A stretch of DNA of 64,000 bases from an uncultured delta proteobacterium (GCA_963724765.1 CAVRVY010000004.1:1632001-1696000); one strand, 5' to 3'. Positions 25,232 to 41,845 are shown, counted from the first letter of the stretch. Notes: a model not told the origin generated them from the sequence alone. A program made the numbers and translations.

Positions 25232-26476
25232 ATGCTTGACCAAGAAGCAATGCAGATCGCTCGGAAACGGCTTAGCGCAGAGAGCTCGAGGCGCCATCAT
25301 TTCTTCCACACAGAACTGCAACGCGTTCAGAACGAACTTGCGACCAAAGGACTGGGACGATCCGGCGCGCTGATTCAGGCCGTTGCCGATGTGTGCGCGA
25401 AAGAGATCGAGGACGCGACCAATCAACTTTGGGAGGTTGTCGGTGCTCTGCTTCGGGAGGGCAATGGCGTCCCCTCGCCTGAAGCGGTTAGGACGCTTCA
25501 CGGCCAGATTGATGAACTATGGGTTCCTTACTGCTCTGCTGGTCCAGAAAGGGAGTTTGAAGCGATTTGCCAGCGTGACAGCGTCAGCCCATCGGTGAAG
25601 AGTGCGACCCATTTCTACGATCGAAGTGTCAGCGCGCGCATGCGGATCCAGTCCCAGGTCGAAGAGTTCATGCGCTCGGCACGCAACCGGCTCTCGCCTG
25701 ACACCAGTCCAAGCCATGAGGGCCGCAATCCTAAAGTGTTTCTGAGTCATGCCGCCTCAGACGAACACATCGCGTTGCTATTGAAGGCAGAGGTCGAGCG
25801 ACGCCTGCCGGGCGTCAAAGTATTCTGTTCAAGTGATCCCGCGGACCTGCCGCCGGGCACCAAGTGGTCCCCGGAAATTCAACAAGCCCTGCAAGAGTCG
25901 GCTATGCTGATCTTTGTTGCGTCGGATCGTGGCCTGCAAAGGCCGTGGGTTTGGTTCGAGTGTGGAACGTTCTGGTTTAGCGAGAAGAAGATCATGCCGC
26001 TTTGCCTCGGAGAAGTTAGGAAGAACGCCCTTCGCCCGCCTCTCTCGGAGTTGCAGGCGATCAATGGCGACGAATCCAGCGACTTGAAGACCGGCTTTGA
26101 CGTCATCGCCGCAGCCACTGGCTCAACCGTTTCTGACGCCTCAGATCTAAACAACCTTTCCGAAAAGCTGGGGCAGTTGGATCGCGAAGCGGCCGCTGTT
26201 TTGAATGCGTCGTCTGGATGGCTCGGGGCCGGGTGGAAAGGAAGATTTCTGGCTTATGATGGTCCTTACGAGCGTTTGAAGGAGATCGGAGATCGCAATT
26301 TCGAAACCTCCATGCAGGAGGCTCTTCAGGCTGTAGGTTACAATGTCGCCCTCTACGAGAAGAACAACTTCGCGGCAATGGGCGACGCCAACCATTTCGT
26401 CCAGTTGACCGACAGAAAATCATGGAGATGTCGCATCGTCAGAGGTACTGCATACCTGGTCGCAACGCCGATCTAA
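25232..26476 (+). CDS. TIR (TIR_2) domain-containing protein
   Basis: KVFLSHAASD, I..AL..S..LIFVAS, WVWFECG (catalytic Glu position), IMPLCL. Confidence 0.85.
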   Translation: MLDQEAMQIARKRLSAESSRRHHFFHTELQRVQNELATKGLGRSGALIQAVADVCAKEIEDATNQLWEVVGALLREGNGVPSPEAVRTLHGQIDELWVPYCSAGPEREFEAICQRDSVSPSVKSATHFYDRSVSARMRIQSQVEEFMRSARNRLSPDTSPSHEGRNPKVFLSHAASDEHIALLLKAEVERRLPGVKVFCSSDPADLPPGTKWSPEIQQALQESAMLIFVASDRGLQRPWVWFECGTFWFSEKKIMPLCLGEVRKNALRPPLSELQAINGDESSDLKTGFDVIAAATGSTVSDASDLNNLSEKLGQLDREAAAVLNASSGWLGAGWKGRFLAYDGPYERLKEIGDRNFETSMQEALQAVGYNVALYEKNNFAAMGDANHFVQLTDRKSWRCRIVRGTAYLVATPI

Positions 26477-26510
26477 CGCTCCACGCTGAGCCGCATCCCG
26501 ATTGCTCAGT

Positions 26511-26673
26511 TGTGCCTCCCGAAAACCTTATCCGGGATGACGGTCGGGTGGGCGTATGGTAATGAAGCGGCCGATGGTCGCGTTTCTGAGCCAGCTGCTG
26601 CTTGCTATCCGGTCGCGGTTCACAGGGCGTGCGCGGCTTGAGGCCGAAAATCTCCTGTCGCTACCGAAAACCT
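26511..26673 (+). mobile_element. Remnant of an rve-integrase IS (left end plus N-terminal codons) followed by a second IS-end-like sequence
   Basis: TGTGCCTCCCGAAAACC end; MVAFLSQLLLAIRSRFTGRARLEAENL resembles the N-terminus of the element at 46557-47851; TGTCGCTACCGAAAACC at ~26657. Confidence 0.6.
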
Positions 26674-26859: not shown

Positions 26860-27218
26860 AACGGCATCTTTGGGTTCGCTTTGGGGGAGCAGCGCCAAAA
26901 GGCCCCAGGTCCCGCGACTTAGCACCCCCAGGCGAACTCGAGAAGCGGGTTGCTCTCGCTCAGGTAGTGGACCTCGATCTGATGTTTCCCCGAGCAACCG
27001 GCGGTCGCCCTCTTTCACCAGCTTGTCGCGGTAATAACCAGCCACCCAGTACGGTTTGCTTGTCGCCTTGGGAACCGCATCCGCGCTCAGATAACACTGC
27101 ACGGTCGCTTCGTTGCCTGAACCTCGATGACGGGATTGCTCACACAGTGCCGCAGATAATCCACGGTGGCGTGCCATTGCCGGTGGTAGTTCGCGTACCA
27201 TTCGCGGATCGCGGCGCG
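26860..27218 (-). pseudogene. SnoaL/NTF2-family protein fragment, frameshifted, N-terminus missing
   Basis: RAAIREWY...LRHCVSNPVIEV/GNEATVQCYL...GYYRDKLVKEGDR; boundaries approximate. Confidence 0.65.
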
Positions 27219-27313
27219 GAAGTAGAGGATGTGCGCGTGCCTTTCAATCGCCCAGCGCTTACCATGTTCGTTCGGGTCGCGTAGATTCGCGGTGTCACCA
27301 CGCGGAGGTCCCA

Positions 27314-28467
27314 ATGGCGGCGGAGCGCAAGGGTGCGATCGAAATCTTCAAAGTGGCCGGCATCCAGGTCGCCATCGACTATTCCTGGCTGATCATCTTC
27401 GCGCTAATCCTTTGGTCACTGTCCTCGGGATATTCCCCGCGAAGTATCCCGGCTATTCGACCGGCAGTTACTGGCTGGTGGGACTGGTTGCGACCATCCT
27501 GCTCTTTGGCTCGGTGCTCGCGCACGAGCTGTGCCACGCGGCGATGGGGAACCGACTCGGCGAGGAGGTGCACCGGATCACGCTGTTCATCTTCGGCGGA
27601 ATGGCGGAACTGGAGCACGAGCCCAGCAGCGGGATCGATGAGCTCAAGATCGCCGCGGTGGGTCCGCTCAGCTCGCTGGTGATGGCGGCAATCTTTTGGC
27701 TGATCGCGCGCGGGGTCGGCGCGGCTCCGGCGATGGCGCTGTGGGGAGCGGTCTTCTCCTATCTCGCCTTCATCAATCTCGCGCTCGCACTGTTCAACCT
27801 GCTGCCCGGATTTCCGCTCGACGGGGGGCGCCTGCTGCGCGCGGCGTTGTGGATGCACTGGGGCGATCTGGGCCGCGCGACCGCGGCAGCGGCCGACTGG
27901 GGCAACACGATCGCGTGGGGACTGATCGCGTTGGGCGCGCTGGAAATCTTCGGGGGCGGGCTGATCGGTGGGCTGTGGCTGATATTCATCGGGCTGTTCC
28001 TGCGCAGCGCCGCATCATCGGGCTACCAGAACATGATCGTCAAGCAGGTGCTGTCAGGCGCGCGCGTGCGCGAGATTATGGTGCGCGATCCGATCGTGCT
28101 CGGCCCCGAAGAAACGGTAGCCGGTGCCGTCGAGAACTATTTCCTGCGCTGCGGTTTCGGCGGCTTTCCGGTTGCGGCGGATGGAAAAGTACTGGGCGTG
28201 GTGACACTTGCGCAGGTGCGCGAGTGTCCTGCGTCCGAGCGCGCGAGCAGGCGCATCAGCGAGGTTATGCGGCGCGCCGACCGGACAATCGAGATTGCTC
28301 CCGGTGCCGGCGTCATCGATGCGATCCGGCAGATGGCGGCTGCGGATATCGGACGGCTGCTGGTCGTCGACCAGGGCAAGCTGGTTGGCCTCATCACGCG
28401 CACCGGCGTGACGCGCTACGTGCAGACCAAAACGCAGCTCTCCGCGCCCGCCGGCACCGCCGATTAA
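27314..28467 (+). CDS. Site-2 protease (peptidase M50) with CBS pair; frameshift near 27434
   Basis: HELCH, LFIFGG, NLLPGFPLDGG, C-terminal CBS domains; one missing T (TAT TCC vs TAT TTC). Confidence 0.9.
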
Positions 28468-28939
28468 CGAGTCCGGCCGAGCACGGGACCCGTACAAAGA
28501 CGGCCGAATGGAATGCTTCGTTTACATTCTCGGTAGTTTCAGCACAGACGGATATTGAACCCACGTCGGCTGGACCAACGATCTGGATCGACGTCTTGCC
28601 CAGCGCAATGCCGGCACCGGCGCGCGCTCAACGCGGGGGCGGGTTTGTGTCTTGCTGTTATGCCGAGCAGCACGCGACGCGCCGCGAAGCGATGAGCCGA
28701 GAGTGGCACCTGAAACGTGACCGGACGCTGCGCAAGCGGCTCGCGCAAGGCGGTTGACGCAATGATTTGCGAGCAAGAAGTGCAGCCTGCTCGGCCGCAG
28801 TTTGAGGCGGCTGTGCCGACCGTCACGTTAAGGCGAAGGACCAGAGCCGGGTGCTGTCCGACTAGATTAGGACAGTACCCCGAATCCGCTTGACCTTGGG
28901 CCTGGGGGCCCGGGTGGAGTATAAAAAGAAGACCAAACC

Positions 28940-29269
28940 GTGTTTAGCCGACTTCTCAGAATGCAATTGATGGGTCCGCTGCAGATACGCGGGCTGATAA
29001 TGTTTCTGCCGCAGTTCGTCCGCGTGTTCTACCGCCTGATGCACGACGCGCGTGTCTCCGTGCTGGCCAAGGCGGTGCCGTTGCTGGGCGTGCTCGCGTT
29101 GATTTCGCCACCGCTGCTGGAACTCGACTTCATCCCCATCATCGGCGAACTCGACTGGATCCTAGTCGGTTTCATCTGCCTCAAAATCTTCATCTGGCTG
29201 TGCCCGCCCGACGTGGTGCGCGAGCACGTGAGCAACGTCGCGCGCGGCGTCCAGCGCCAGGGAGCCTGA
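28940..29269 (+). CDS. DUF1232/YkvA-like small membrane protein
   Basis: RLMHDARVSVLAK...ISP...DFIPIIGELD. Confidence 0.75.
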   Translation: MFSRLLRMQLMGPLQIRGLIMFLPQFVRVFYRLMHDARVSVLAKAVPLLGVLALISPPLLELDFIPIIGELDWILVGFICLKIFIWLCPPDVVREHVSNVARGVQRQGA

Positions 29270-29357
29270 TCGATTCGACCACGTTCGGACGATCAGGGCA
29301 ACTCGTCTCAGCGTCGCAAACTATAACACGACGCTGTCGTCTGACAGTTTAGAAACC

Positions 29358-29391
29358 GGTACCGGCAGTTCGAATTCACTTCGCTCCGCTA
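29358..29391 (+). other. Degenerate tRNA-Ser 3'-end-like sequence, candidate att site
   Basis: GGTACCGGCAGTTCGAATTCACTTCGCTCCGCTA resembles the T-arm and acceptor end of tRNA-Ser (GGTACCG..GGTTCGAATCC....CTCCGCCA); ~250 bp downstream of the recombinase. Confidence 0.5.
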
Positions 29392-29642
29392 CGGAGTCTA
29401 GGGTGTCGTACTTCTCCAACGAAACCGATCAAATTAGCGCGTTTGCGGCCCTTGCATGCTGGCGAAGTGCACCGGAGAGGGCTGAGCGATGGTTGAGTAG
29501 GCGAATGGGTCGGATTCTCTCCATCGCAGGAAGAGGCGGTGGACTTCGGCGATTTATAGGTGGCGCAGAAGTTCGTCAATGCGATGGGTTTGGAAAACAG
29601 AAGTACCGCAACACTCCAGGAAGTGGTCCCTGTGCGGCGTAG

Positions 29643-30572
29643 CTAACAGGCAGGATTTGCGAAGCCGAGCAGTTTTTCTTGCGCTTGCCAACTTAGCGGA
29701 AAATCGCCGCGGCCGGTCGACAGAAACTGAGCGGTGAGTTCCGGCGGCTGGCGCCCCTCGGCAATTCTTTCGACGATCGCGGGCGCGAGGAAAGCCAAGC
29801 GAATCATTCGACTGACGTAGCGCTTACCGACACCCTCCCGCTTACCAATTTCAACCATCGAAACCGAACGACCCGATACTAGATCGTCAAACCAACGGTG
29901 GGCCCGCGCGTTGCCTTCAGGATCGTCGAATCAATCCTCGGCGATGAACCGGAGCCTCCGTCGATGACGAGCCGCATCTCAATTCCGCGCCGTCTCACTC
30001 GCAGCGGTATCTGACGGGTGAGCGATAAGTGGGTCGTGGCACTCGCCGCCGGTTTTCCGGAAGTCCGGATCGGCAATCTGATTGAGAGTCGAATACCATC
30101 CTGGTGCAACTCCGCTCGATCGACCAGCGATTTTAATGCCGTCGATGCCTCAGCCTCTGATCGAAGGCGCGTGCTCCATTCCGCGGCGGTCGCAAAGATC
30201 GAAGTGATGTCATGCGCGTCAAGTCCAGCCTCATCGACGTCGGCCACAATTGCTGTGCGTTCGTCGAGAATCTTGGCGACGGCGGCGGCCAGGTTGCGTT
30301 CGATCTCCAAAGCAGGAACACGCCAAGTCTGTCCAGACTTACGTGCGGTTCCTTTCATCAAACTGCGCGAGACGTAGTATCGATACCGACGATTGCCCTT
30401 GACTGCGTGACTCGGTGTCAGCCGTTCACCTCTTTCGTCGAACAGCTTGCCGATCAGCGGACTGGAGATCGATCCGCTCGGCTTTCCATCGGCCCGAACC
30501 CCATGGAGGCGCAGAAGTTCCTGGGTTCTGTTCCAAACTGAACGTTCAACGATCGGCTGATGCTGGCCCGCA
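29643..30572 (-). pseudogene. Large serine recombinase, C-terminal half only; frameshift near 29900
   Basis: GQHQPIVERSVW, PLIGKLFDERGERLTPSHAVKGNRRYRYYVS, RRRGIEMRLVI, RLAFLAPAIVERIAEGRQPPEL...LPLSW-type tail. Confidence 0.85.
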
Positions 30573-30702
30573 AGACCTCTTCTTGGTCGAGGCCTGGCTC
30601 CAAAATGAGCACGGCATGAACTCGCTCCAGGCCGACGACCGCCGAATCGCGGACTCCGGGGAGCCGATTCAGCACCAGCTCGACGTCTTCAGGAAACACC
30701 AA
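30573..30702 (-). pseudogene. 130-bp fragment of an AMP-binding (acyl-CoA ligase) gene
   Basis: VFPEDVELVLNRLPGVRDSAVVG...VHAVL. Confidence 0.65.
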
Positions 30703-30826
30703 TCACCGCAGACCGCACAGTTCGCTGGGCTATAGATCACCCGCTCCCGAGGCCATCTTGCCCTTGCCATCAACCCAGCTCTCTCTGTAGTGCTGGATCG
30801 CCAACCGGGGTCAGGTCAATACGCTG

Positions 30827-31240
30827 TTATTGCTTCGAATTCTTCCCGTTCACTCGCTCATAGACCCCGCGGCTCTTTCGCTTCACCATCTTCGCATCAA
30901 TCCAACGCGTAATGGCCGCGAAGACCTCGGAGGGCCGCTTATCCTTGGTCATAGGCACGGCACGGATATGCGAGGCCTTGAACTGCTTAGGCAGTTTCTC
31001 CAACACAGCTTGCCAATTGATTCGACCGGCGCCTTTTCCTGATACGCCACGCTCCGACCGGCTAGCAGGAGCACTTCGCTGTCCAGCGAACGCGGCGAGT
31101 TTAACCTCGTCATCTCGCAGCCGCCGCAGTGCTGACTCTTTGGCGCGGATCTCCTGAGCTAAGCTTTTCAAGACTTGGCGCGCCTTACCTTGAACCTGAC
31201 GAAGTGCGGAGCTGACTTGAGTAGCGGGACCACGTGGCAT
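30827..31240 (-). CDS. Small basic protein, coiled-coil N-terminus plus predicted winged-helix C-terminus
   Basis: LKSLAQEIRAKESALRRLRDDEVKL; SEVFAAITRWIDAKMVKRKSRGVYERV; GGAGG RBS. Confidence 0.7.
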   Translation of the reverse strand: MPRGPATQVSSALRQVQGKARQVLKSLAQEIRAKESALRRLRDDEVKLAAFAGQRSAPASRSERGVSGKGAGRINWQAVLEKLPKQFKASHIRAVPMTKDKRPSEVFAAITRWIDAKMVKRKSRGVYERVNGKNSKQ

Positions 31241-31419
31241 TCGGTTGGTTCCTCCTGTAGCAGAAAATAGCGATCCAAATGTATTCGGCGAACCTACAGC
31301 GGCTACTGGTCAGGTGCAAGCGTGGCACGAGGCTCGCTGAGAGCTATGGTTGGTTCCCCGAGGCATCCCGCGCGTCCTACTGGTTCGGGTTGAAAGTGTT
31401 CGCGTTGCTCTAGCTTCGA

Positions 31420-31668
31420 CTAGGTCGAATTGCGTCTTTGTCTGCGGAGTTGCTTGAGTATGTCCCGGACTGCGCACAGATAACCAAAGTGCCAGTAAAT
31501 GCGTTCTGACGTGTCCTCATCCAGATATCGCCGCTTCAATTGGCATTCGTCCCTATGTCTTGAGAGCCATTTCCGCAAATCCCCAAATTCGCATCTCATC
31601 GCTCTCTCATGCCCATATTCATCAAACAGATTCCATCGCGCCGACTTATTTTTTGTAACGATTTCCAT
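31420..31668 (-). CDS. Hypothetical protein
   Basis: 82-aa ORF co-oriented with the element; ERIYWHFGYLCAVRDIL looks like a conserved helical motif. Confidence 0.5.
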   Translation of the reverse strand: MEIVTKNKSARWNLFDEYGHERAMRCEFGDLRKWLSRHRDECQLKRRYLDEDTSERIYWHFGYLCAVRDILKQLRRQRRNST

Positions 31669-32001
31669 GACTTACTACTCGGAAATGATTCAAATATATG
31701 CCATGCTCAAAACGTGGTCGGAATCTGACTCCTTGCGGAGTTCCTGTGCCGCTAACTCCATCAGTGTGTAACGCGGTTTGGTGCCCTGAGCGCGGCCCGA
31801 CGCCGCCTATCTGTCCACTCGGCGATCCGCCGCCGCCTAACCTTAAAGGCGTGGCGCAAGCGAAAGTACTAAAAATTCAAAGCCGCCCAATAGCCCTTTG
31901 TCGCGGCGATCAGCGATGCGCTCTCATGTATAGTAACGAGGCGATTGTTAGCCGCTTTGCAACAAGTCGATGAGTGATCCCGTCGGCCGCACGAGATTCA
32001 G

Positions 32002-33585
32002 TCACCAAGTGCCTTTGTTTGGGAATCTGAGCTTGCCTGCCCAGACATCCCATCGCCCCCTTTGAACTGGATAATCGTCACCGTGTGAGCCACGGTAAAA
32101 AGGTGACTTTGGATTCTGAAGTTCGCGAACCGAATGCCATTCAAAAACCTGATGTGGTCTGCCTAGCGCAAGCATAAGCGCCTCGGCACGATCCGGCGAT
32201 TGCACGCCGCGCTGCCTGGCCTTTTCTTTGGACTCGATCATGATCCGACCGCGCGGATCGATTTCGTAGAGGATGCCAGCCAGTTGTCCGATCGTGGTGT
32301 CGTCAATCAAGCCATCGATCCCGTCGCGCTCCAGAAGATCCGCAACGCGCTGATACAATTGCGCTTTCTTATTCAGAAAGCGTAAAGCCGGATCGTCCGC
32401 TCTCAAGTTGGGTTTGCTTTCTACCGGGATTCCGACGTGAACGAGCTCGACGGGCAGGCCTTGGTCGCGCAGATGCAGACCGAAATTGTATCCGACACCA
32501 TCAGCATCCACACGCACGGTGGCTAGTCGGTCGCGGTACGGTTTCAGAAAGGCGACCGCGTAACCGCGAGTGTCTTCGCCACGCCACGCACCGAACTTGA
32601 GGATCTTGGGGTTGCCCTTTGTTATCTCGCAGAGATAGACGACCGTCTCCGAGTCGACGCCGCCCACGTCGACGCCAGCGACCAGTCGCTCGCCCGCATC
32701 CTTAACGGGATTTTCCAGGGCACGCCGTTTTGCGCGCTCCAGCCATGGTAGCTTGATGAGCGCATTGTGCGACTGATCTGAAAACTGTCCGCGTACGCGC
32801 GACATCCAGTTAGGCGAGCTGCGTTCGTCGCCGTGCCACCATACGAGATGCTGGTCATACACCCACCGTTTTGTGACCAGATATGGCACCGGGTTGCGAT
32901 CAAGCGGACCGCCTGTGGCCGAATCCATCGCAAGCAATTGCTCAAGTGTGATGCCTTCAAGATTAGGTGAATCGAAAGCATCGATGGTGATGCAGTTCCA
33001 CAGTCCGCGCTCCCGGTTGAAAGCGTCGAAGAATGGGCCCGAAGGAATGGTTGGATTGCCCGCGACCACGATGTGGACTTTGCCGCCGGCCATGGCGCCG
33101 GCGATGGCATCCCAGATCTCAGCCGCAATCCCCGGAGCCTCGTCGACGATGATGAGGACGTACTTGCCGTGGTAGCCCTGGAAATTCTCGGCCTGATTCG
33201 TCGAAAGGCCGAGGGCAAAGTTATCTTCGCCGCGAAACTTGAGCTCGGTCGTCTTCAACTCTGGATATGGAATTTTTGATCCCGCGGAGATTCGATGAAG
33301 CTCCGACCACACCTGGGTTCTAACCTGTCGGAGAGTCGGACAGGTGGTCAGAACGATGCCTTGCGGGTAGCGGGCCAGCCACCAGAGCGCGGCTAACGCA
33401 AGCGAATAGGTCTTGCCGGCCCCATGGCAGGCCTTGATCGCGGTGCGGCGGCTGCTCTGAATCGAGCGTAATATGTCAGCCTCGCGCTCCCAGAGCTCCG
33501 CCCCGAGAATATTGGTTGTGAACAGAACCGGGTCAGCAATGACCTTTCGTACGTATGCCTTTTGATCTGGGGTAAGTTCGCTCAT
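32002..33585 (-). CDS. terL: Phage terminase large subunit
   Basis: Walker A ACHGAGKT, Walker B LIIVDEA, motif III AGNP, RNase-H-like nuclease GVDVGG...RVDADGVG...SPDRAEALML. Confidence 0.9.
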   Translation of the reverse strand: MSELTPDQKAYVRKVIADPVLFTTNILGAELWEREADILRSIQSSRRTAIKACHGAGKTYSLALAALWWLARYPQGIVLTTCPTLRQVRTQVWSELHRISAGSKIPYPELKTTELKFRGEDNFALGLSTNQAENFQGYHGKYVLIIVDEAPGIAAEIWDAIAGAMAGGKVHIVVAGNPTIPSGPFFDAFNRERGLWNCITIDAFDSPNLEGITLEQLLAMDSATGGPLDRNPVPYLVTKRWVYDQHLVWWHGDERSSPNWMSRVRGQFSDQSHNALIKLPWLERAKRRALENPVKDAGERLVAGVDVGGVDSETVVYLCEITKGNPKILKFGAWRGEDTRGYAVAFLKPYRDRLATVRVDADGVGYNFGLHLRDQGLPVELVHVGIPVESKPNLRADDPALRFLNKKAQLYQRVADLLERDGIDGLIDDTTIGQLAGILYEIDPRGRIMIESKEKARQRGVQSPDRAEALMLALGRPHQVFEWHSVRELQNPKSPFYRGSHGDDYPVQRGRWDVWAGKLRFPNKGTW

Positions 33586-33586
33586 G

Positions 33587-34114
33587 TCATTCCTCCTCTG
33601 AAATCGGACCAACTTCGTTAAGTAAGTGAACCAGCGTCAGCGGCTTGCCGTCTTTGCCGGTGAGCTCGTGTCTCTGTGCTGCAGCGTAACCCTGGATTCT
33701 CGCCGTGTGGTCGAGCACCTTAACTCCAACCTCGATCGAGCGTGGATTGCCCTTGCGGATCCCGGGCTGTAGATTCATGAACATCTCTTCGCTGCGTGCA
33801 CTGTCGAGCTTTCTCAACTCGTCGACTGCAAGCGCCGGCTCCCGGGCGATGGCCCTCGTGAACGCTTTGTGGCACGCTTGCTTAGAAATCTTGTAATCCG
33901 GTGGAAACGTCAGGCTGTCGGGGATAGCGACCATCGCGGTCGCCTGGCCGCAACCGACGCGACTGATCTGGTCAGCGATCGCATCGAACGACAGCCCCAT
34001 CCTCTTGAGGTGAACCGTCTCGGTTTCCACCCATCTGGCTCTCAAAACCGCTTCTGACACCATCACCGCCCTCTTCGTGCTCCGCCACGTGCCATCCGGG
34101 TTGCGCTTCATCAT
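33587..34114 (-). CDS. Putative terminase small subunit
   Basis: Immediately upstream of terL; HTH-like LKRMGLSFDAIADQ; C-terminal HELTGKDGKPL typical of TerS tails. Confidence 0.7.
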   Translation of the reverse strand: MMKRNPDGTWRSTKRAVMVSEAVLRARWVETETVHLKRMGLSFDAIADQISRVGCGQATAMVAIPDSLTFPPDYKISKQACHKAFTRAIAREPALAVDELRKLDSARSEEMFMNLQPGIRKGNPRSIEVGVKVLDHTARIQGYAAAQRHELTGKDGKPLTLVHLLNEVGPISEEE

Positions 34115-35503
34115 TGACTAATCACCTCCGGCTTGAGGCCAAGGGCGACCATGCGTTCCAATGCCACCGCTACGAATGGCGCGGACTTCTCAATCGCGTA
34201 ACACCGTCGTCCAGTTTGCTGCGCAGCGACTAATTGAGATCCGCTGCCCGAGAACGGCTCATAACAAATCTCATTGGGTTCGGTGTGCATCTCCATCGGC
34301 AGCGCAAAGAGTTTGCAAGGCTTCGAGGTGGGATGCGCGTCGGTCTCGACTTCAGAACTCGGAATCTGCCAGATCGTGGTCGGAAACTCGTCCGCCGTCT
34401 GACCGACTTGCGCTCGAAAAGTTTTAGGTTTCTCGCCCTTAATCCAGCCGAACAAGCACGGCTCGTGCTGCCACAAATACACAGAGTAAGTCAGCACCGG
34501 ACGAGTCTTAACCCAGATGATTTGCTGGTGCACAAATGCGCCGAACTCCATCCAGATGCGTTCCAACATCGACTGGCGTTTGCTCGCGTGCCAGCAGTAC
34601 CAGGCGGCGTCGCGGGTGATGGCATGCTTGATCGCCATATCCACGAACCCGCGATATAGCTCGACGCCCGACTCCTCGGTGTTCTGCACGTCCGCGCTGT
34701 TGGCTTCCAGGTACTGGCCCGACCAGTCTTTGTCTCGATTCGCAGCACCCTTATTTCCCCAGCTTTGCGGGTGCGAGCCGCCCGTATAGCCCACCGCATA
34801 CGGCGGATCAGTCGCGAACAGAACGGCCCGCTCGCCACCCATCAACCTCGACCACGTCTTCAGCCTTGGTTGAGTCGCCGCACAGCAGCCGATGCTCGCC
34901 AATCCGCCAGAGTTGGCCGGCTTCGGTGCCCCACTTCTTCTGCAGTTCGCCCGCCTTGTCGATCTGCGCCGGAGGCTCAACGAATTCGTGCGGATGAATG
35001 CGCTCCCACAGTTGTTCGCCGGCTGTGCGCCGCAGCAGCTCTTCCACCGCGGCGCTGTTGGTGCCGACCGTCTCGATAAGCGCCTTGATTCGCTCGGCGT
35101 CCGATTCTGCCATCGCGGCGAGCGGGTCAAGCGTAAGCAAGATCTTGTCGGCTTCTTTTTCGGTGACATCCAGGATCAGTACGGGGACGAGAGCGTCAGG
35201 TGTGGTCTCGGCGCGCAAGTGACCGTCGATCAGCATCAGCCTGTTGTCTGACAACTCGCGGACGAGCAAAGCATCCGCGTATCCGATCTCCGTCAAAAGA
35301 GCACGCAGCGCGTTCGCCTGAGCTCTGGGATGTCTCCTCCAGTTCTTCGGATTAGGCACAAGGTCTCCCGCTCGCACCCGACGAAGGTCCTTAATCCGGT
35401 CCCTAATCTGTAGCGGTGTTCCCTCGCAAGCCTGGTCTGCAGTTACGCGGACGGTCGATTGCTGCTCGCTGTGAGAATCGGACACTGTTTCTGTCGTCGC
35501 CAT
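34111..35503 (-). CDS. ParB-like domain + N6/N4 DNA methyltransferase (beta class); frameshift near 34845
   Basis: PNPKNWRRH, LIDGHLR (ParB); HRLLCGDST/RLMGGERAVLFATDPPY; HPTSKP; YEPFSGSGS. Confidence 0.9.
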
Positions 35504-35658
35504 GTTGCATTCCCCTCACTTGGACACGCCCGATCGCAGCTCCGCTATCTGTTCACGATCGTGTTGAGCGTGGCGGTGTTCGATGCGCGACGCTCTTTGC
35601 ACCGTGATCAATAGCTTGAAGCGCGAATCGTGAGAGGGAAACTAATCGCGCGTCAACT

Positions 35659-36375
35659 TCAGCGAGTCTTCGCGGAAGTTGACGACCGCAAGGTGAGTTC
35701 GATGTATCTCGCTAGCTCGACGACTGCTTTGCGGATGGTCTGCCGGCCGCCATTGAATTTGTACGAGGAATGTCGCGCGATCGATGCGAAGGGTTCGCTC
35801 CTGATCTGGTAACGTACCAGCCAGTCGAAGTGGCCAACGTCCCGTCGGCGCGGAGATCGTTTCAAGCCCGCGGCCAGCGCGGCAGCCTCGATGCGATTGC
35901 AGTAGGCGTCAAGCGCTTGGTTCACCTGTTGAAGAACGTCTTTCTTGAAGTCACGCCGCCGCCGCCACGTTGGATCGTGGTAGAACGGTCCGAGCTTTAG
36001 CGGCTCAAGCTTGAATGGGAAGAATCCCGCAAAAATGCCTGTGCTCTCAAATTCCCAGCCCCTAACCTCAGGATGAGCAACCCACCAGCGCAGGGTGTCG
36101 TGCGCGAGCAGCGTGCACCATCGATCGGTCAGGTGCCAGCGCTCTGCCCACGCTGCCAATGCACGTTCGTCATCGACGGACACATTGCGGAGCGTTGCGA
36201 CCAATTCTGGTTGCAGCTCTGCGGCGCGTGCAAGGAAAAGCCTCCGATGCGCATCGGGCGCGCCAGGTACCAAGCCAGTACGGCCGTCAGAGGCGAATCC
36301 CGGTACATAGAAATCGCCTAACGGCCACGCTAGCCCTGGTGACGTGATCGTGCCTTCTCTTGCCGCTGGTTTCAT
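35659..36375 (-). CDS. Hypothetical protein with C-terminal HTH-like region (possible regulator)
   Basis: GGAGG RBS; WLVRYQIRSEPFASIARH...RQTIRKAVVELARYI. Confidence 0.6.
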   Translation of the reverse strand: MKPAAREGTITSPGLAWPLGDFYVPGFASDGRTGLVPGAPDAHRRLFLARAAELQPELVATLRNVSVDDERALAAWAERWHLTDRWCTLLAHDTLRWWVAHPEVRGWEFESTGIFAGFFPFKLEPLKLGPFYHDPTWRRRRDFKKDVLQQVNQALDAYCNRIEAAALAAGLKRSPRRRDVGHFDWLVRYQIRSEPFASIARHSSYKFNGGRQTIRKAVVELARYIELTLRSSTSAKTR

Positions 36376-36571
36376 CCTCCACCTCCCCTCCCGGGTTTCT
36401 TGGGGTCAGGAAACGCCAAGCCGAATGACTGTCGCTAGCTGTCCCGGTTGAGAGGAAGCAGGCGACCAGAGACAACAAGTATAGCAACTCGTTGGTTCAG
36501 TTCAGGTAGCCGACCGTCGCGCCCCACTGTTTGGCGAAGCGCGGTGCGTAGAAATAGGGGCGTGGCGCAGA

Positions 36572-36822
36572 GATGGACGCAAGATCCGCCTTGATCGTGC
36601 GACTCTGTCGGATCGCGTATGGTCCGAGCCCATCGAGAGAGTGGCAAAGGAGTGGGCGCTCTCTGGTCGCGGCTTAGCGAAGGCATGCGGTCGTCTCAAG
36701 ATTCCAGTGCCGCCCCGCGGGTTTTGGGCAAGGCCCAGCATGGTAAGCGGATACACCGACCGCGTCTCCCCGAGTTGCCGTCGGGCGAAGCCGAAGAGAT
36801 CGTTATTCGTATGCCGGAGTGA
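36572..36822 (+). pseudogene. Mobile-element-associated small DNA-binding-like protein fragment; frameshift near 36732
   Basis: LDRATLSDRVWSEPIERVAKEWALSGRGLAKACGRLKIPVPPRGFWA/AQHGKRIHRPRLP; no clear start codon. Confidence 0.6.
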
Positions 36823-36875
36823 CTATGGCACGTACCAGAACGTCGTTTTATGAAAGGTCCGGCACCGGTCGACTT

Positions 36876-36937
36876 TGTCAACCGCCGGCTGTCAACCACC
36901 GGATTGTCAACCGCCGCTCGGGTGTCAACCGGTTGAC
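36876..36937. repeat. Four direct copies of TGTCAACC followed by an inverted copy
   Basis: Copies start at 36876, 36890, 36905 and 36923; palindrome GTCAACCGGTTGAC at 36924-36937. Confidence 0.85.
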
Positions 36938-37408
36938 GACTCTGCGGGAGAGGGGTTCGCAGCAGACTGGGTCATCCGCCAACGAGTCCTTCTCGATCCT
37001 GCTCTTAGCGCATAGACATTGACCAGGCCGCTTAGCAACCCGAAGATTTTCGATCTCGATTCAGCGCCGTCCGTTTTAAAGTTCAGATTGCACTCCGACT
37101 CACCTCAGCGCATCAATTCGATAGCAATTCTCGCAGCTGCTTAAATTAACGGCTCCGATGGAATTTTTAGTAGGCACACGCGTTCGATCTGGCGGCGAGG
37201 ATGGCGGGCGCCGAGGAGGAGACTGAAGTCGCTGCGGAAGCGCGCAAGGACGGCGAGGAGGGCGGCGGGGAATGATGCGGCGGTGGATGGCGCCCCCCCC
37301 CCAGGGTTTCAGGGACGTTACGCTAAAAATTTATAGAAATGACACGGCGCGCAATCGGGCGACGGTTTGCGTCTTGCCGGCGAGTAACGAACGACGTTGT
37401 CTCAACAA

Positions 37409-38424
37409 CTATGGTAAGCTCGCGGTTACCCGACCTTCAAATCTGGGATTCGAGAAGCGAAGAAAGTGCAGTCCGAGGCGCCACCCTGACTCAGTGGTGC
37501 TATCGAGGTCCGAGACATAGTCGATCTGAAACGCGTGCTTCGCCCTCTCCCGGCCGAAGAACTGGAAAGTTAGGGTCCTAATGCCGCTGTCCGACTCCAT
37601 ACCCGCGAACGAGCTAATCTCCGGAACGTAGCACACGATTCGAGCGGGTATTCCATCCGAGAGCTGGTCAGAGGCCTTCTCAAGGTCTTCTTCTATGCCT
37701 TTCAGGTACTCATCTTGCGTGCGACTCCAGCAGGCCAACACGATCGGACTCTGTCCGGAAGGACTCTGACCAAAAGCGGCAATATGGACGAACGGTCCGG
37801 CACGGCGGGCGGTCCTTTCTGCTTCGGTTTGTAACGATTTTGTCGGATTCAGTTCAGGTCGCAAGATTACTGAAATTCGCGTGTCGTCAGGCAAACATGT
37901 CTCGCCGCCACCTTGCAATCGCAATACGGCTTCAGCCGTCCTTCGGCGCCATTCCGATGTCGTGGGCATTGCTCCAGGCGTGCGTACTTCTATGGATGCG
38001 ATCAGGCCTAAACGCGTCGGAAACTTTGGGATCACGTCATCACAGAACTCGAAGAAGTGTCGCCGCTTGACGAGTCGCTTTGCATCAACGGTTTTACACT
38101 TGCACTCGACCTCAAACTCAAAACTCGCGAATTTCGCGCGCATGTCGGCCGTCTTGCTATTTTTTTGGGGCGGAATCCAGTGAAGCTCAGTGCCACCGAG
38201 CACGAGATGATTGGCGGTCTGAATCTCTACAATCACCGGTTCTATTGGATCCTTGCTCAGCAGACGACGTCTTATCTCCTCTCTCTTCCATTCGGGCATT
38301 CGTTCCGACGCAGAAGCGATCTCTGCAGCGGTACTGAGCGCGTGCCTGACCTTTGGATTCGAGATATCCACTCGTCGTTTGCTTCGAGCTGCGTGCATGA
38401 GGTCCTCGAGCCCTAACCAAAATT
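37409..38424 (-). pseudogene. C-terminal part of a PD-(D/E)xK nuclease-like gene interrupted by IS1595
   Basis: EPVIVEIQTA...KTADM...FEVECK motif; the frame continues on the other side of the IS (40693-40957). Confidence 0.6.
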
Positions 38425-38473
38425 GGGGAATAATATACTTGACTAATCCTCGCTCGTTCGCTATGATTCTGAC

Positions 38474-39442
38474 ATGGACGCAGGAATACCGAGAACGTTG
38501 ATCGACGCGGTTCGGTTCTTTAAGAACGCCGATAACTGCCGCGAGTTTATGGCGACTATCCGCTGGCCGGACGGCATCAAGTGTCCGACATGCGGAAGTG
38601 ATAAGGTTGGCTTCCTTGCCAATCAAAGCCGCTGGCAATGCAGTTCAAAGCATCCGAAGCGTCAGTTCTCCGTTAAGGTTGGAACCATCTTTGAGGATTC
38701 GCCCATCGGTCTCGACAAGTGGCTTCCGGCTGTCTGGCTGTTGGTCAATTGCAAGAACGGGATTAGCAGCTATGAAGTTGCACGCGATCTCGACGTGACA
38801 CAAAAGACCGCATGGTTTATGCTTCATCGGATTCGCAAGGCAATGCAGACCGGAACATTTGAGAAAGTCAGCGGTCAGGTGGAAGCCGACGAAACTTTTA
38901 TCGGTGGCCTCGCCCGATTCATGCACAAGGCAGATCGCGCAAGAAAAATCGGGGGCACGGGCGGGGCCGGTAAAGCGATTGTGATGGGCATCCTCGACCG
39001 CAACAGCGGCAAAGTCCGCATCAAGCATGTTCCGAATACTCAGCGCCGGACGCTACAGGATGAAATCCGCCAGCACGTTGAAGCCGGTTCGGAAGTGTTC
39101 ACCGATGAATGGGTCGCGTACAACGGCCTAGACCGTGAGTATGTTCATCAGGTTATCAATCACACGGAAGCCTACGTTAAGGGCAACGTTCACACGAATC
39201 GAATCGAAAACTTTTGGTCCTGCCTAAAACGCGGCCTCAAAGGAACCTACATCAGCGTCGAGCCGTTCCATCTGTTCCGCTATCTCGATGAGCAGGCGTT
39301 CCGATTCAACGAGCGCAAGGGCACGGATGCGGCGCGCTTTGTTCAGGCGCTCGGCAACGTGACAGGACGGCGCTTGACGTACAAAGAGCTTATCGGCGGC
39401 GGCGCGCCAGCGTTTGAGCCCTCATCGACTCCGGCAGAGTAG
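38474..39442 (+). CDS. IS1595-family DDE transposase
   Basis: RWPDGIKCPTC Zn ribbon, QKTAWFMLHRIR, EADETFIGG, VFTDE, HTNRIENFW, YLDEQAFRFNER. Confidence 0.95.
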   Translation: MDAGIPRTLIDAVRFFKNADNCREFMATIRWPDGIKCPTCGSDKVGFLANQSRWQCSSKHPKRQFSVKVGTIFEDSPIGLDKWLPAVWLLVNCKNGISSYEVARDLDVTQKTAWFMLHRIRKAMQTGTFEKVSGQVEADETFIGGLARFMHKADRARKIGGTGGAGKAIVMGILDRNSGKVRIKHVPNTQRRTLQDEIRQHVEAGSEVFTDEWVAYNGLDREYVHQVINHTEAYVKGNVHTNRIENFWSCLKRGLKGTYISVEPFHLFRYLDEQAFRFNERKGTDAARFVQALGNVTGRRLTYKELIGGGAPAFEPSSTPAE

Positions 39443-39481
39443 AGGCAGACTGACGCGACCAAAACGTGATAGACTGAAGTT

Positions 39482-39655
39482 ATGAAGGATTCAGCCGTCA
39501 CGCACGTCACGCACGAAGCACGGCCTGACGAACAACCACCAGAATCAGCATTTCAGCGGTTCGCGAAAGCCATGCGCGCGTTGGTTGCTGTACCCAAACA
39601 TGAACTTGCGGAACAGCTGACGAAATCCAAGAGAAAGAAACGTGGCGTTACATGA
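39482..39655 (+). CDS. 57-aa basic IS1595 accessory protein (not in ORF track)
   Basis: MKDSAV...AFQRFAKAMRALVAVPKHELAEQLTKSKRKKRGVT*. Confidence 0.6.
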   Translation: MKDSAVTHVTHEARPDEQPPESAFQRFAKAMRALVAVPKHELAEQLTKSKRKKRGVT

Positions 39656-40157
39656 CCTTCTGATCCTGACAGAGTATGAGACTGGCCACGCCGTTACCGC
39701 AATTGAATGGGTTGCGCGCGGTGGCAAACCTATCATCGAAATTGGCGGGCGCGTTTTAAGCGCCGAAAAAATTGAAAGTCTTTCAGACGATTTGAATCGT
39801 TGCATCGATATCGCGGGAGAATCGGAAGTCTATGGATTCGTTCTGCGCGATGGCGATTGGTGGCGATTCGGGTTTTACCGGTACGAGTGGGCCATTGCTG
39901 GCCTGCTTCATCTTTTTGGTGAAGCCCCCGCAATCCATGGCACACACGCTCACTGGATACGGGGGCTTCTGTTCGGTTATAGCTCAGACTCTATTCATCG
40001 ATTCATTTCGTCTGAGTGCGACGGACAAGAGTCCACGTCGCATTCGCACCCTTACAGGAAAATCCGCGTTTATCGCAGGGTGGAAATTTATGATACTCCG
40101 GAACAGCCCGCTCCACTCCGCAGCAGTCAGAACGGTAAATTCCGGACACTTGATTAA
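39642..40157 (+). CDS. Hypothetical IS passenger protein
   Basis: 171-aa ORF overlapping the upstream stop; HWIRGLLFGYS motif; 3' tail overlaps an antisense gene. Confidence 0.55.
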   Translation: MALHDLLILTEYETGHAVTAIEWVARGGKPIIEIGGRVLSAEKIESLSDDLNRCIDIAGESEVYGFVLRDGDWWRFGFYRYEWAIAGLLHLFGEAPAIHGTHAHWIRGLLFGYSSDSIHRFISSECDGQESTSHSHPYRKIRVYRRVEIYDTPEQPAPLRSSQNGKFRTLD

Positions 40158-40176
40158 CTTCGCCTGGTTTAGGCAT
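40003..40176 (-). CDS. YjzC-like small Cys-rich protein
   Basis: MPKPGEVNQVSGIYRSDCC...HKFPPC...C...WTL; AGGAAG RBS. Confidence 0.6.
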   Translation of the reverse strand: MPKPGEVNQVSGIYRSDCCGVERAVPEYHKFPPCDKRGFSCKGANATWTLVRRTQTK

Positions 40177-40231
40177 TTGTTTTTGCTTCCTATTTGATGC
40201 TGTTAAATTTTGCGAGTTGCCTGTGAGCAAT

Positions 40232-40262
40232 CCGCCCCCTTTCGGGGGCGTCGGTCTTTTTA
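40232..40262 (+). terminator. Rho-independent terminator
   Basis: CGCCCCC-TTTC-GGGGGCG stem followed by TCGGTCTTTTT. Confidence 0.65.
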
Positions 40263-40326
40263 TGATGTATCGTAGGCCATAAGGCACACCTTTCCCGTTG
40301 GCTCGCGGCCTGACCACACGAGCCCG

Positions 40327-40432
40327 TTGCAGGGTTGCCTTTATGGTGGTAAGCTAAATTCTGAATCGGATCCGGCCTGCCAGTCAGGCACCCAAGCCCC
40401 TGCCATCGGCAAAATGACAGGGGCTTTTTTCT
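40327..40432 (+). ncRNA. Candidate ~70-nt small RNA with its own sigma70-like promoter and terminator
   Basis: TTGCAG (40327) - 17 nt - TG.TAAGCT (40350); GCCTG-CCAGT-CAGGC hairpin; AGCCCCTG...CAGGGGCT + T6 terminator; no ORF between them. Confidence 0.45.
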
Positions 40433-40692
40433 TATTCTCTTATTGGATTGTGAAATGCGGCCCCACTCATCCTCCCTGCGCGCCCGATTAAGACCTTGCC
40501 CACCCTGCCACCGCTCTTAGCGTAACGGCTTGCCACGCTTGAGTCAACTACTTAAGACATTCTAAAAGATCATTAAAGATCACTTAGATCACCATGTAAT
40601 ACGTAAATGAGTGGACACGAACGCGGTTTGTCGGCCAGCCTGTCACGTCCCGTTCAGCCTAGCACACGGATTAGTCAAGTATATTATTCCCC

Positions 40693-40957: not shown

Positions 40958-41026
40958 GCAAGAACGTCTGTCCCAAAGGGCTTGTTACCCGACCGGCCGG
41001 CGCACAATCGTGATTGTGAACGGCGT

Positions 41027-41437
41027 TGTGCCTAGTCAAAACCTAGTGCCGGACATATTGATGATGCAACCCGCCAAGGATGGGAATTGCCGCGATGTCG
41101 CCCACCGGTAGAGGGCGACGGAAGTTCGGCGCATTTTTATCCAATGAGAGGTGTGTCCGGACCTTGTTGTAATACGAGGCGTAGGTTTTCAGAACACGAT
41201 GCAGATGCGCCTCGCCGAACACGACTACGTGATCGAGGCATTCGCGACGTATTGATCCAATGAGCCGCTCGACGTGGCCATTCTGCCATGGCGAGCGTGG
41301 CGCCGTAGGGTGATCGCGGATTCCCATTGCCCGAATGCGGCGGGTATAGGCTGGACCGAATGCAGCGTCGCGGTCTCGAATCAGATGTTGAGGGGCTTGA
41401 TCCCAAGGGAAGGCATCAGTGACTTGACCCGCAATCC
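41027..41437 (-). mobile_element. rve/integrase-core IS remnant (C-terminal part plus end)
   Basis: AFPWDQAPQHLIRDRD...RSPWQNGHVERLIGSIRRECLDH...GGLHHQY; TGTGCCTAGTCAAAACC end. Confidence 0.85.
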
Positions 41438-41845
41438 AAAATATACGGCTCTATTTTGCGATTAGGCGGCATTTCTGGAGGTGCGACAAATTCGATTCGC
41501 AAGCTGAAGCGCTCTGCGACGCCGGATTCTTCTCGAAGGCGCGAATCCCATTCGCTCAAAGAATCGAAGCGCTGGACAAAAGGCGTCGACTAGGCGTTCG
41601 CCACAGCCGGAGCAAATGAACGGTCGACGCACGTTGATCCAATAGACTCCATTGCGACGCTGGCGCCGCAGCCGGTACGGCTCGTTCCGGCCATGTCCGA
41701 TCTGGCATTTTTTGAGCCACTTGATCTCACCGCCACCTCCAAGTCCGCCCGCCGCATACCTCTCGCGGCCACTCCGACTCGATCCCGAACGATATTGCCT
41801 CCTTATCCTTCATCCGAGATGAGGTTTTCGCCAGCCACAGGCCTC

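Follow-up and report, generated by a model that had tools for sequence, protein, structure and literature searches.

A degenerate copy of a capsid-less ParB-methyltransferase/TerS/TerL island family of Binataceae, a possible terminase-carrying phage satellite

PICIs such as the SaPIs and EcCICFT073 are integrative islands of small size that combine a regulator and a terminal integrase with accessory or defence cargo; they carry a packaging gene but no virion genes and are presumed to spread in helper capsids (PMC10085698). Their terminase contribution is described as TerS only (or Ppi/Rpp), with TerL supplied by the helper, and a primase-replicase is present, usually together with AlpA and a tyrosine integrase (PMC10085698). 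The only satellites described in that account as encoding their own terL with terS are the cfPICIs, whose 11 core components further include capsid, portal, protease, head-tail adaptor and connector (PMC10085698). VEIMEs and PICMIs are further small integrative elements, some of them with serine recombinases and TerS. Small terminase subunits and 'motor-like ATPases' are reported for them, the term 'TerL' is absent from the available text, packaging is assumed to be performed by the helper's large terminase, and VEIMEs were recovered from particles (PMC9618062).

The locus studied here lies in a window of 64,000 nucleotides (the whole stretch of DNA that was analyzed, to which all unprefixed coordinates refer). 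It is best read as a degenerate copy of a small integrative island family of Binataceae (Binatota), and this family is tentatively regarded as a terminase-carrying phage satellite, an assignment given slightly less than an even chance. The family resembles the PICIs, and in part the VEIMEs and PICMIs, in the format outlined above, although an integrase and a regulator were recognized in some loci only. As a complete terL accompanies terS in its invariant core, it does not conform to the TerS-only pattern of PICIs. Neither a primase-replicase nor the AlpA and tyrosine integrase pair was found in the family; the predicted integrase is a large serine recombinase accompanied by DUF2924, and a ParB-methyltransferase (MTase) belongs to the fixed core. 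None of the cfPICI head components is present. Gene order and protein families are shared with the packaging module of temperate tailed phages, in which the ParB-MTase lies upstream of terS, terL and portal. ParB-MTase homologues were detected in 420 phage records, and Streptococcus phage Javan105 carries one upstream of terL and portal. However, portal and head genes follow terL in phages and in distant relatives (L112, L131, L125 and L187) and never in the family of the window. A literature search retrieved no publication on a capsid-less island architecture of ParB-MTase, TerS and TerL.

All genes of the run are encoded on the minus strand. The original prediction of this run proved real, with intact terL and terS-like genes, but the MTase is frameshifted, the recombinase lacks its catalytic domain and a proposed tRNA remnant was unsupported. 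TerL (32002..33612, 536 aa) matched phrog_2 over residues 40-495 (E 1.3e-33) and scored 20.7 bits against PF03237, slightly below the 22-bit cut-off. It could be aligned over 85-90% of its length with 231 phage terminases, 112 phage records covered at least 80% of it, and the best 120 of its 456 homologues were 61-93% identical. The GxxGKT and acidic motifs are invariant in 30 sequences, with H63/G66/K67/T68 and D157/E158 invariant or nearly so; these N-terminal ATPase motifs are presumably Walker A and B. The C-terminal region weakly matched the nuclease domain of Sf6 gp2. Full-length similarity to phage TerL proteins and the presence of predicted ATPase and nuclease regions thus argue for a complete large terminase subunit. 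Comparison with 50,697 phage genomes identified a nearest deposited phage TerL with 33.7% identity.

As predicted, a terS-like gene (33587..34114, 175 aa, intact) lies directly upstream and overlaps the longest terL open reading frame (ORF) by 26 nt and the stop codon of the MTase by 4 nt. Its position, size and overlaps and a match to phrog_645 (E 3.6e-12; a family annotated 'Rnase E') point, if weakly, to TerS. A single tblastn match to an annotated TerS was obtained, that of Arthrobacter phage Altadena (E 5e-5), and the paralogue in a second copy within the same genome carries DUF5681. The AlphaFold model contains HTH-like helices and a long helical hairpin; Foldseek returned no match for it at E<=0.001, and its sole full-length fold match was a weak one to the G20c small terminase (Z 6.6, VIA-align rank third).

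Upstream of terS, the expected fusion of a ParB domain and an N6-N4 DNA methyltransferase (34111..35503) was verified at the domain level by phrog_498 and PF01555 (E 6.9e-15), but it is not one intact gene. One extra base near 34850, placed by comparison with the intact 468-aa homologue of L001, splits it into two overlapping ORFs (34808-35503 and 34111-35169) that correspond to profile positions 35-214 and 212-421 of phrog_498. The extra base is missing in contigs of two other public runs (X2 and X6), and intact homologues of 468-472 aa are found in L001 and L002.

The run starts with a 238-aa accessory protein (35659..36375, cluster c12), which had been considered an HTH-like regulator, as a 137-aa protein (30827..31240, cluster c22) in the cargo position had been considered a wHTH protein. 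These labels were not borne out: neither protein has a Pfam or PADLOC family, and PHROG matches reached at most E 0.003. The c12 protein had no match in Pfam, PHROG or PADLOC and only unnamed clusters in the Atlas; in L005, L019/L048 and L020 a homologue immediately precedes the MTase, and a 98% identical copy is present in the same genome (C3:119793-120986). The c22 protein, with its single weak PHROG match, has relatives in L019/L048 and in the same genome (C3:1387627-1388034), and the final 183 bp of its gene are duplicated at C1:209956-210138 (99.5% identity). A putative 82-aa ORF (31420..31668) had no match in Pfam, PHROG or PADLOC and no second copy in the genome. No regulator of the CI, Xre/ImmA or PICI type (alpA, merR or stl) was recognized in the run. 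Pfam and PHROG searches of the run likewise detected no portal, capsid, tail or lysis genes, in line with the original prediction.

At the distal end of the run, a truncated large serine recombinase (29643..30682) was confirmed, of which only the C-terminal two thirds (approximately residues 210-556 of 556) are left. In tblastn searches with 556-aa relatives, residues 210-473 corresponded to 30682-29909 and residues 474-556 to 29909-29658, with an interruption near 29879-29909, and phrog_14161 ('recombinase') matched 29643-29858 (E 5.2e-13). No Resolvase domain (PF00239) was found in the window's recombinase and the serine catalytic domain is therefore missing, while relatives such as those in L081, L008 and L024 carry PF00239 and PF07508. 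The usual partner, DUF2924, had no match in 28800-32000. The frameshifted MTase and the loss of the catalytic domain indicate that the window copy is probably no longer self-mobile. The region is also rearranged and rich in insertion sequences: an IS1595 copy, identical to one on C3, occupies 38425-40691 with rve_3 fragments close by, and host synteny is lost beyond approximately 24325.

The tRNA-Ser-like att remnant proposed past the recombinase was not supported; instead, a repeat of approximately 100 bp, R1 (29286..29400), lies about 250 bp past the recombinase stop codon. ARAGORN detected no tRNA anywhere in the 64-kb window, Rfam yielded nothing in 27000-40000 at E<=1, and comparison of the region with the 59 tRNAs of the genome gave only chance matches of 9-12 nt. 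R1 has at least nine copies in the genome (83-96% identity), several of them a few hundred bp past other serine-recombinase genes, and contigs of other runs match as far as 29389-29399 and diverge beyond. On the opposite side, a repeat of approximately 135 bp, R3 (37040..37178), has five copies in the genome, one of which (C1:209821-209955) abuts the 3' end of the duplicated c22 fragment; several contigs of other runs match as far as 37141-37147 and then diverge. R1 is thus a candidate for the recombinase-side island end and R3 a possible outer boundary. Among bulk-metagenome contigs, 0 of 79 whole contigs had identical ends, and no excision junction, circular or packaged form or helper phage was found in such contigs of the public runs. 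A lone joint that appeared to go back was traced to a paralogous genomic locus rather than a circle.

To place this copy in context, 89 loci were clustered together with the window. The MTase was present in 70 loci, TerS in 67 and TerL in 66. Loci with this trio came mostly from soil and peat metagenomes and from Binataceae MAGs; the family was found in 38 of 165 Binataceae species genomes and 16 of 30 genera, with one to six matches per genome, both intact and broken. The genome of the window itself contains a second intact trio (C3:141.4-144.7 kb, 65% TerL identity) and several decayed trios. All three genes were full length in 29 of 46 assessable loci, and median dN/dS values of 0.136 for TerL (363 pairs), 0.106 for TerS (326 pairs) and 0.108 for the MTase (155 pairs) reveal strong purifying selection. 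At least 5 kb of sequence downstream of terL was available for 30 loci. When 150 cluster representatives from downstream and 93 from upstream were scanned against PHROG, no portal, capsid, protease or tail match was obtained; the same scan identified, as a positive control, a portal directly after terL in relatives of 30-45% identity (L112, L131, L125, L187, L171, L178 and L182). In a quick maximum likelihood tree the family formed one clade (SH-aLRT 100, stem length 0.75), of whose 18 rows 17 were portal-less and one of undetermined portal status, and its sister group mixed portal-bearing phages with portal-less loci.

These data bear on the view that the genes of the window are an ordinary tailed prophage that has lost its head, tail and lysis genes. 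The damage to this copy, with its frameshifted MTase and truncated recombinase, and its rearranged, IS-rich setting would suit such decay. Yet the portal-less arrangement extends through the whole clade, dN/dS values of 0.11-0.14 signal strong selection, and the closest phage TerL is just 34% identical; independent decay would not be expected to spare one and the same gene trio and its upstream site across dozens of lineages. The original prediction had named a portal downstream of the closest homologues and relaxed selection on terL as signs of a decayed prophage, and neither was observed. Prophage decay is therefore contradicted at the family level and extremely improbable for the window, and the comparison supports a recurrent capsid-less terminase element.

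Complete copies follow a common order. A conserved site of approximately 120 bp with iterons and a 14-bp palindrome comes first, followed by either a CI-type repressor or a variable accessory gene and then by the trio; a slot holding 0-13 kb of cargo separates the trio from a recombinase end consisting of a small gene (c11/c15), DUF2924 and the large serine recombinase. The anticipated synteny of ParB-MTase, terS, terL, recombinase and DUF2924 without a portal therefore recurs: 15 loci contain the recombinase cluster, as do G322, G366 and G446. DUF2924 and the recombinase immediately follow terL in L094, L004, L058, L087, L028, L081 and L024, lie behind 6 kb of methyltransferase-type cargo in L068 and, in G322, a complete genome, are found 13 kb past terL. 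Where 10-kb flanks were available, about half of the loci showed no recombinase. Directly behind terL, defence cargo was identified as IetA/IetS in L093 and PDC-S39 in L002, and CI-type or ImmA/Xre switches were found in L008, L070 and L031. No replication module (primase or replicase) was recognized in the window's run or among the recurrent neighbors of the family. Several recurrent neighbors (c4, c7, c9, c12 and others) have no family in Pfam, PHROGs, PADLOC or the Atlas, and they could conceal the shell proteins of a very small or divergent virus. This is highly unlikely, as no accessory cluster is common to more than 16 of approximately 66 loci and compact copies such as L094 are too small to accommodate head and tail genes: between the host genes on either side they contain only the trio, a single small gene, DUF2924 and the recombinase. 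This type of terminase requires a portal, and none was found.

The upstream site is represented in the window by the conserved non-coding element R2 (36838..36990), just inside R3. It comprises AAACGNCGTTT, three GTCAACC(R)CCG iterons (at 36877, 36891 and 36906), a conserved block of approximately 45 bp and the 14-bp palindrome GTCAACCGGTTGAC (36925-36938). In 34 related loci, R2-like DNA (72-93% identity) precedes the MTase, and its conservation was assessed in an alignment of 16 sequences. Within the window the exact iterons occur at this site only, and the exact palindrome occurs once each in 21 of 189 fetched loci, all of them family members. No covariation in support of an RNA fold was detected in R2, which may be a cis site of the kind that a terminase needs.

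Such a site at one operon end would direct packaging through the trio and cargo, and it is in accordance with a dispersed GTA-like or lateral-transduction system, in which the terminase would start at the chromosomal R2 and fill capsids encoded elsewhere or by a resident prophage with adjoining host DNA. Many loci do lack an integrase within 10 kb, and the genome of the window contains two other phage-like regions with portal-family matches. Nevertheless, these two phrog_113 portal-like matches each contain an in-frame stop, the terminases of their regions are unrelated to that of the window by BLAST, and neither an HK97-type capsid nor a portal of PF04860, PF05133, phrog_2662 or phrog_12 was detected in this 97%-complete genome. 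The patchy occurrence of the family and the presence of several divergent copies in single genomes are also more readily explained by a selfish element than by a host function, and the dispersed system is considered unlikely.

The main rival to the satellite reading, rather unlikely itself, is a phage-derived anti-phage cassette that is kept for the benefit of host or island and needs no transfer of island DNA. The terminase might act as a decoy or poison that seizes or blocks an invading phage's procapsids or its DNA, or as a restriction-like motor-nuclease on DNA without the cognate methylation. Where the trio is 90-94% identical, the flanks are unrelated and homology ends at or near the terL stop codon. 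What diverged copies have in common is precisely the operon: in L025 and L079 a shared segment of 3348 bp (90% identity) is set between unrelated flanks, and the 94% identity of L058 and L060 extends only as far as the terL stop. This pattern is typical of both defence cassettes and cargo slots. The strong selection on all three genes, the patchy distribution with several divergent copies per genome and neighbors of the defence-island type (IetAS, PDC-S39, methyltransferases, helicases, a TIR protein and transposases) point in the same direction, and for the conservation of the trio with one upstream site alone a defence-type cassette fits almost as well as a satellite. On the other hand, the trio core proteins correspond to no known defence system in PADLOC-DB 2.0. 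TerL and TerS match no system model, which means only that such a system would be undescribed, and the MTase matches generic Type II models (E 1e-50 for the L001 homologue against the Type II MTase model). A broken MTase beside intact TerS and TerL, as in the window, L070 and L105 (G366), argues against dependence of the restriction-modification type. The link to DUF2924 and the serine recombinase, scattered across the whole TerL clade, and the conserved non-coding site 1-5 kb upstream suggest that the element has a life cycle of its own. The defence and satellite readings are compatible and do not exclude each other.

Under the satellite reading, an island that has kept a complete packaging enzyme and no shell genes would most likely travel in the shells of another virus. 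Recurrence without structural genes, purifying selection, descent as one lineage, spread over many genomes, the island order and R2 speak for this reading. The absence of a recognized replication module or known helper phage, the contigs without identical ends, the unrelated flanks, the loci lacking a recombinase, the weak TerS assignment and the unrelated terminases of the two regions with portal-like matches speak against it. The satellite proposal, which extends to excision and to dependence on a helper, is drawn from gene content and conservation. The island would stay silent in the chromosome until a helper phage infects or is induced. Its TerS-TerL complex would then recognize the putative cis site, cut, and pump island DNA into procapsids made by the helper. 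Methylation of the island DNA by the ParB-MTase before packaging is proposed to let it survive restriction in the next cell, where the serine recombinase would integrate the island. Competition for procapsids would also reduce the yield of the helper.

The interval from 29.3 to 37.2 kb of the window is occupied by a single run of minus-strand genes. In transcription order it starts with a 238-aa protein of no family (35659-36375), followed by a ParB-domain/N6-N4 DNA methyltransferase (34111-35503), a TerS-like protein of 175 aa (33587-34114), the 536-aa large terminase TerL (32002-33612; phrog_2, E 1.3e-33), two small ORFs (31420-31668 and 30827-31240) and the remnant of a large serine recombinase (approximately 29658-30682). 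The terL gene is whole, as originally predicted, and the caveat that the recombinase is truncated was confirmed: residues ~210-556 of the 556-aa relatives remain, the catalytic domain is absent and the usual DUF2924 partner is missing. The prediction has to be corrected for the methyltransferase, which is frameshifted. Two ORFs match consecutive parts of phrog_498, and an intact 468-aa homologue used as reference places one extra base near 34850. This base is absent from the contigs of two other public runs, so the methyltransferase is normally intact in this lineage and the frameshift in the analyzed genome results from either mutation or misassembly. The window copy is a damaged member of an island family. 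A Foldseek fold search with the TerS-like protein returned nothing at E<=0.001, and the 238-aa protein and the members of c4, a cluster of unannotated neighbor proteins, were assigned only to unnamed clusters in Atlas. A tRNA-Ser-like att remnant had also been proposed; ARAGORN and Rfam searches were empty and only chance matches were obtained between the region and the 59 tRNAs of the genome, and a tRNA-derived att site was rejected.

TerL relatives were drawn from representative genomes (5 loci), IMG/VR and metagenomes (the best 80 of 384 relatives). ORF clustering of 89 loci and the window yielded only three near-universal clusters, namely the methyltransferase (70 loci), TerS (67 loci) and TerL (66 loci). 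At least 5 kb of sequence was available downstream of terL in 30 loci. The predicted lack of portal and capsid genes next to terL holds across the family, as PHROG searches detected no portal, capsid, protease, connector or tail protein among 150 of 151 cluster representatives located 0-7 kb downstream or among 93 representatives located 0-4 kb upstream. Matches among these neighbors were transposases, serine integrases, methyltransferases, helicases, regulators and host enzymes. As a positive control, a portal directly after terL was recognized in more distant IMG/VR relatives with 30-45% TerL identity (L112, L131, L125, L187, L171, L178 and L182). The 97%-complete genome that contains the window (contigs C1 to C4) had no match to capsid PF05065, portals PF04860 and PF05133 or PHROG portals 2662 and 12; portal PF06381 was matched neither here nor in the control genomes, and its absence therefore carries no information. 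Portal-like phrog_113 matches with one in-frame stop each were present at C2:271778-273229 (E 1e-129) and C1:461184-462137 (E 3.4e-70), and both were missed by the Pfam portal models. The two regions, which are possibly defective prophages, also hold TerS (phrog_426), an endolysin and their own TerL, unrelated by BLAST to the TerL of the window. We consider it highly improbable that the islands carry shell genes that escaped recognition.

In a quick maximum-likelihood tree of TerL, rooted only at the midpoint, the family formed one clade (SH-aLRT 100) on a long stem, with 17 portal-less loci and one of unknown status among its 18 rows. Its sister group comprises portal-bearing phages and further portal-less loci. 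The best match among 50,697 deposited phage genomes was only 33.7% identical to TerL, and the neighbors of the closest phage TerL (BK063673) had no BLASTP homology to the methyltransferase or TerS of the window. Pairwise dN/dS (NG86) was calculated for full-length ORFs in pairs at 70-98.5% identity, with medians of 0.136 for TerL (363 pairs, 52 ORFs), 0.106 for TerS (326 pairs, 48 ORFs) and 0.108 for the methyltransferase (155 pairs, 42 ORFs). Relaxed selection on terL had been named as the mark of a decayed prophage, and the low TerL value argues against it. All three genes were whole in 29 of 46 assessable loci as judged by ORF length, a crude ORF picker accounting for part of the remainder. 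The clade-wide absence of a portal and the low dN/dS led us to reject the window run as a decayed prophage, and a simple prophage remnant is considered extremely improbable.

The family is abundant, with 456 TerL homologues in the protein collection, the best 120 of which share 61-93% identity and have the length of a TerL, next to the 384 metagenome relatives; its host is an uncultured soil/peat phylum. TerL matches at E<=1e-40 were found in 38 of 165 species genomes of the bacterial family (37 of 164 without G454, a genome flagged as unpublished). These genomes represent 16 of the 30 genera and have 1-6 matches each, among them both intact copies and copies with stops. In a sample of 301 genomes of the phylum, only 7 had a match. 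The analyzed genome itself has a second intact set of the three genes at C3:141417-144742 (L012:10417-13742), with a TerL 65% identical and a ParB-methyltransferase 23% identical to those of the window, and a TerS-like protein that carries DUF5681; a 97-aa ORF and host ABC-transporter genes follow. Decayed copies of the trio lie at C1:610.5-612.7 kb, C3:33.8-35.5 kb and C1:580.4-581.6 kb. Another type of capsid-less terminase island was found outside the window at C4:1241000-1250500 (L013:9279-18400). It encodes a tyrosine integrase, AlpA, a 627-aa DNA polymerase/primase (phrog_19930), a 146-aa ORF and a TerL 40% identical to that of the window, which is followed only by small ORFs and, further on, an Eco57I-type gene. 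This layout resembles PICI and P4 elements but includes terL. The C-terminal domain of the serine recombinase occurs in approximately 20 paralogous copies distributed over all four contigs, some in clusters (C1:660-675 kb and C3:225-244 kb), which indicates a large population of serine-recombinase elements in this genome.

Where two copies are 90-94% identical in the trio, their flanks are unrelated. In L025 and L079, common sequence is limited to 3348 bp, from within the methyltransferase N-terminus to the terL stop, and the divergence of L058 and L060 begins exactly at the terL stop. The unrelated flanks are at least in part explained by a cargo slot. As had been anticipated, the trio recurs together with DUF2924 and a serine recombinase and without portal or capsid: both genes, the recombinase at full length, lie almost directly after terL in L094, L004, L058, L087, L028, L081 and L024. 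In L068, 6 kb of methyltransferase-type cargo separates them from terL, and in the complete genome G322 the intervening cargo extends over 13 kb, with genes for a 5-hmdU DNA kinase and a MazG-like protein as well as an ImmA/Xre pair among its contents. Other slot contents are IetA/IetS (L093) and PDC-S39 (L002). The recombinase is found on the opposite side of the trio in L008 and L106, as expected for a circular permutation, and recombinase-linked loci are spread across the entire TerL clade. The 5-hmdU DNA kinase (PF18723, E 3.5e-109) was observed in the slot of three islands (L072:11762-12940, L031:14554-15804 and L103:7788-8945), alongside a MazG-like protein, an ImmA-like protease and an Xre repressor, and these genes may form an island-borne thymidine-hypermodification set.

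A non-coding element just upstream of the first gene (R2, window 36838-36990) has counterparts of 72-93% identity in 34 related loci, a conservation on par with that of the genes. Its components are AAACGNCGTTT, a series of three to five GTCAACC(R)CCG repeats at ~14 bp spacing, the palindrome GTCAACCGGTTGAC and a 45-bp block. Three exact repeats are confined to R2 within the 64-kb window, and of the 189 loci retrieved, 21 contain the exact palindrome, each a single time, and all 21 belong to the family. None of the 10 predicted RNA base pairs in R2 covary, so it is regarded as a DNA site and not an RNA. Host genes begin within ~0.5 kb of R2 in L001 and L005, which identifies R2 as one island end. 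R2 may serve TerS as its pac site or the ParB domain as a loading site, or it may function as an origin or operator. In the consulted portion of a 2026 study, phage ParB homologues are described as activating DNA-modifying enzymes, which co-occur with terminases (PMC13229309). These results agree with a family of integrative islands that share an invariant packaging core, a cis site at one end, a slot for cargo and a serine integrase.

Excised forms were sought in several ways. Identical ends of at least 15 bp were present in none of 79 whole contigs, and attP reconstruction from the spacers between R2 and the recombinase in L008 and L106 revealed similarity in R2 only. A joint 37147->30807 in two other public metagenome runs (X1 and X2) was rejected as a circle, as its 31 letters are present at C1:209928 and it represents a paralogous locus. 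Among the 24 runs listed, none was of RNA. At C1:209821-210138, the ~135-bp repeat R3 (window 37040-37178) recurs immediately next to a sequence that matches the final 183 bp of the window's 137-aa gene at 99.5% identity; this circular-permutation-like junction may be an old attP-like joint or a rearrangement. The surroundings of the island are rearranged and rich in insertion sequences, with an IS1595 copy at 38425-40691 (identical twin on C3) and rve_3 fragments close to it. Synteny of the host genes with those of the closest relative breaks off at ~24325 and resumes on C3; in G322, synteny narrowed the island border to a 1.7-kb interval on the methyltransferase side only. The non-syntenic stretch left of the island contains a TIR-domain protein (25232-26476; PF13676, E 1.2e-13; weak PADLOC TIR-TM and ThsB matches) that adjoins an unannotated 242-aa ORF. 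A small conserved gene (109-aa ORF), whose true orthologue is at C4:1209016-1209420, is present in an additional copy at 28881-29283. The additional copy is 87-92% identical to copies of other species versus 86% to the genome's own copy, which suggests arrival by transfer. Multi-copy repeat pieces at 26509-26656 and 41025-41438 are 14.4 kb apart here and ~0.5 kb apart in opposite relative orientation elsewhere (e.g. C3:3746-4843), an arrangement that could have been left behind by an IS-mediated inversion encompassing the island.

To our knowledge, satellites either borrow the large terminase of their helper (PICI, P4, PLE) or supply a complete head themselves (cfPICI). Under the core-gene criteria given in the consulted part of PMC10085698, the family is not PICI, as it has terL and neither a primase-replicase nor AlpA, and not cfPICI, as head genes are absent. 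For VEIMEs, the consulted part of PMC9618062 describes TerS only. A literature search, supplements excluded, found no published satellites or islands of such architecture, and almost nothing in print on phages of Binatota. Judged from sequence, the most economical mechanism, which we favor tentatively, would be that the island's own terminase pirates helper-phage procapsids: ParB-MTase would methylate the island DNA ahead of packaging, and TerS-TerL would package it into the procapsids. No replication gene and no helper phage were found for the family. The main rival, a phage-derived defense cassette, is compatible with procapsid piracy and appears rather unlikely; if correct, it would be a terminase-derived immune system, likewise undescribed. 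Lateral transduction or a GTA-like use of the terminase is improbable. The conserved 120-bp site makes both the satellite and the defense interpretation directly testable in vitro.

The interest of these observations rests on the family and not on the damaged window copy. If the piracy mechanism is true, an element with the complete motor alone would represent a third satellite strategy, and a foreign TerL would be able to dock on a helper's portal. With some reservation, we propose that islands with a complete terminase, ParB-MTase and cis site and without shell genes could be a distinct, ancient class of phage parasites, whose point of attack on the helper would be the motor-portal step instead of TerS specificity or capsid size. 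The iteron-palindrome would then be the pac or loading site, and the slot after terL would ferry defense and DNA-hypermodification genes through soil communities. With such defense and DNA-modification cargo, the islands would be a route of gene flow and phage resistance in soils.
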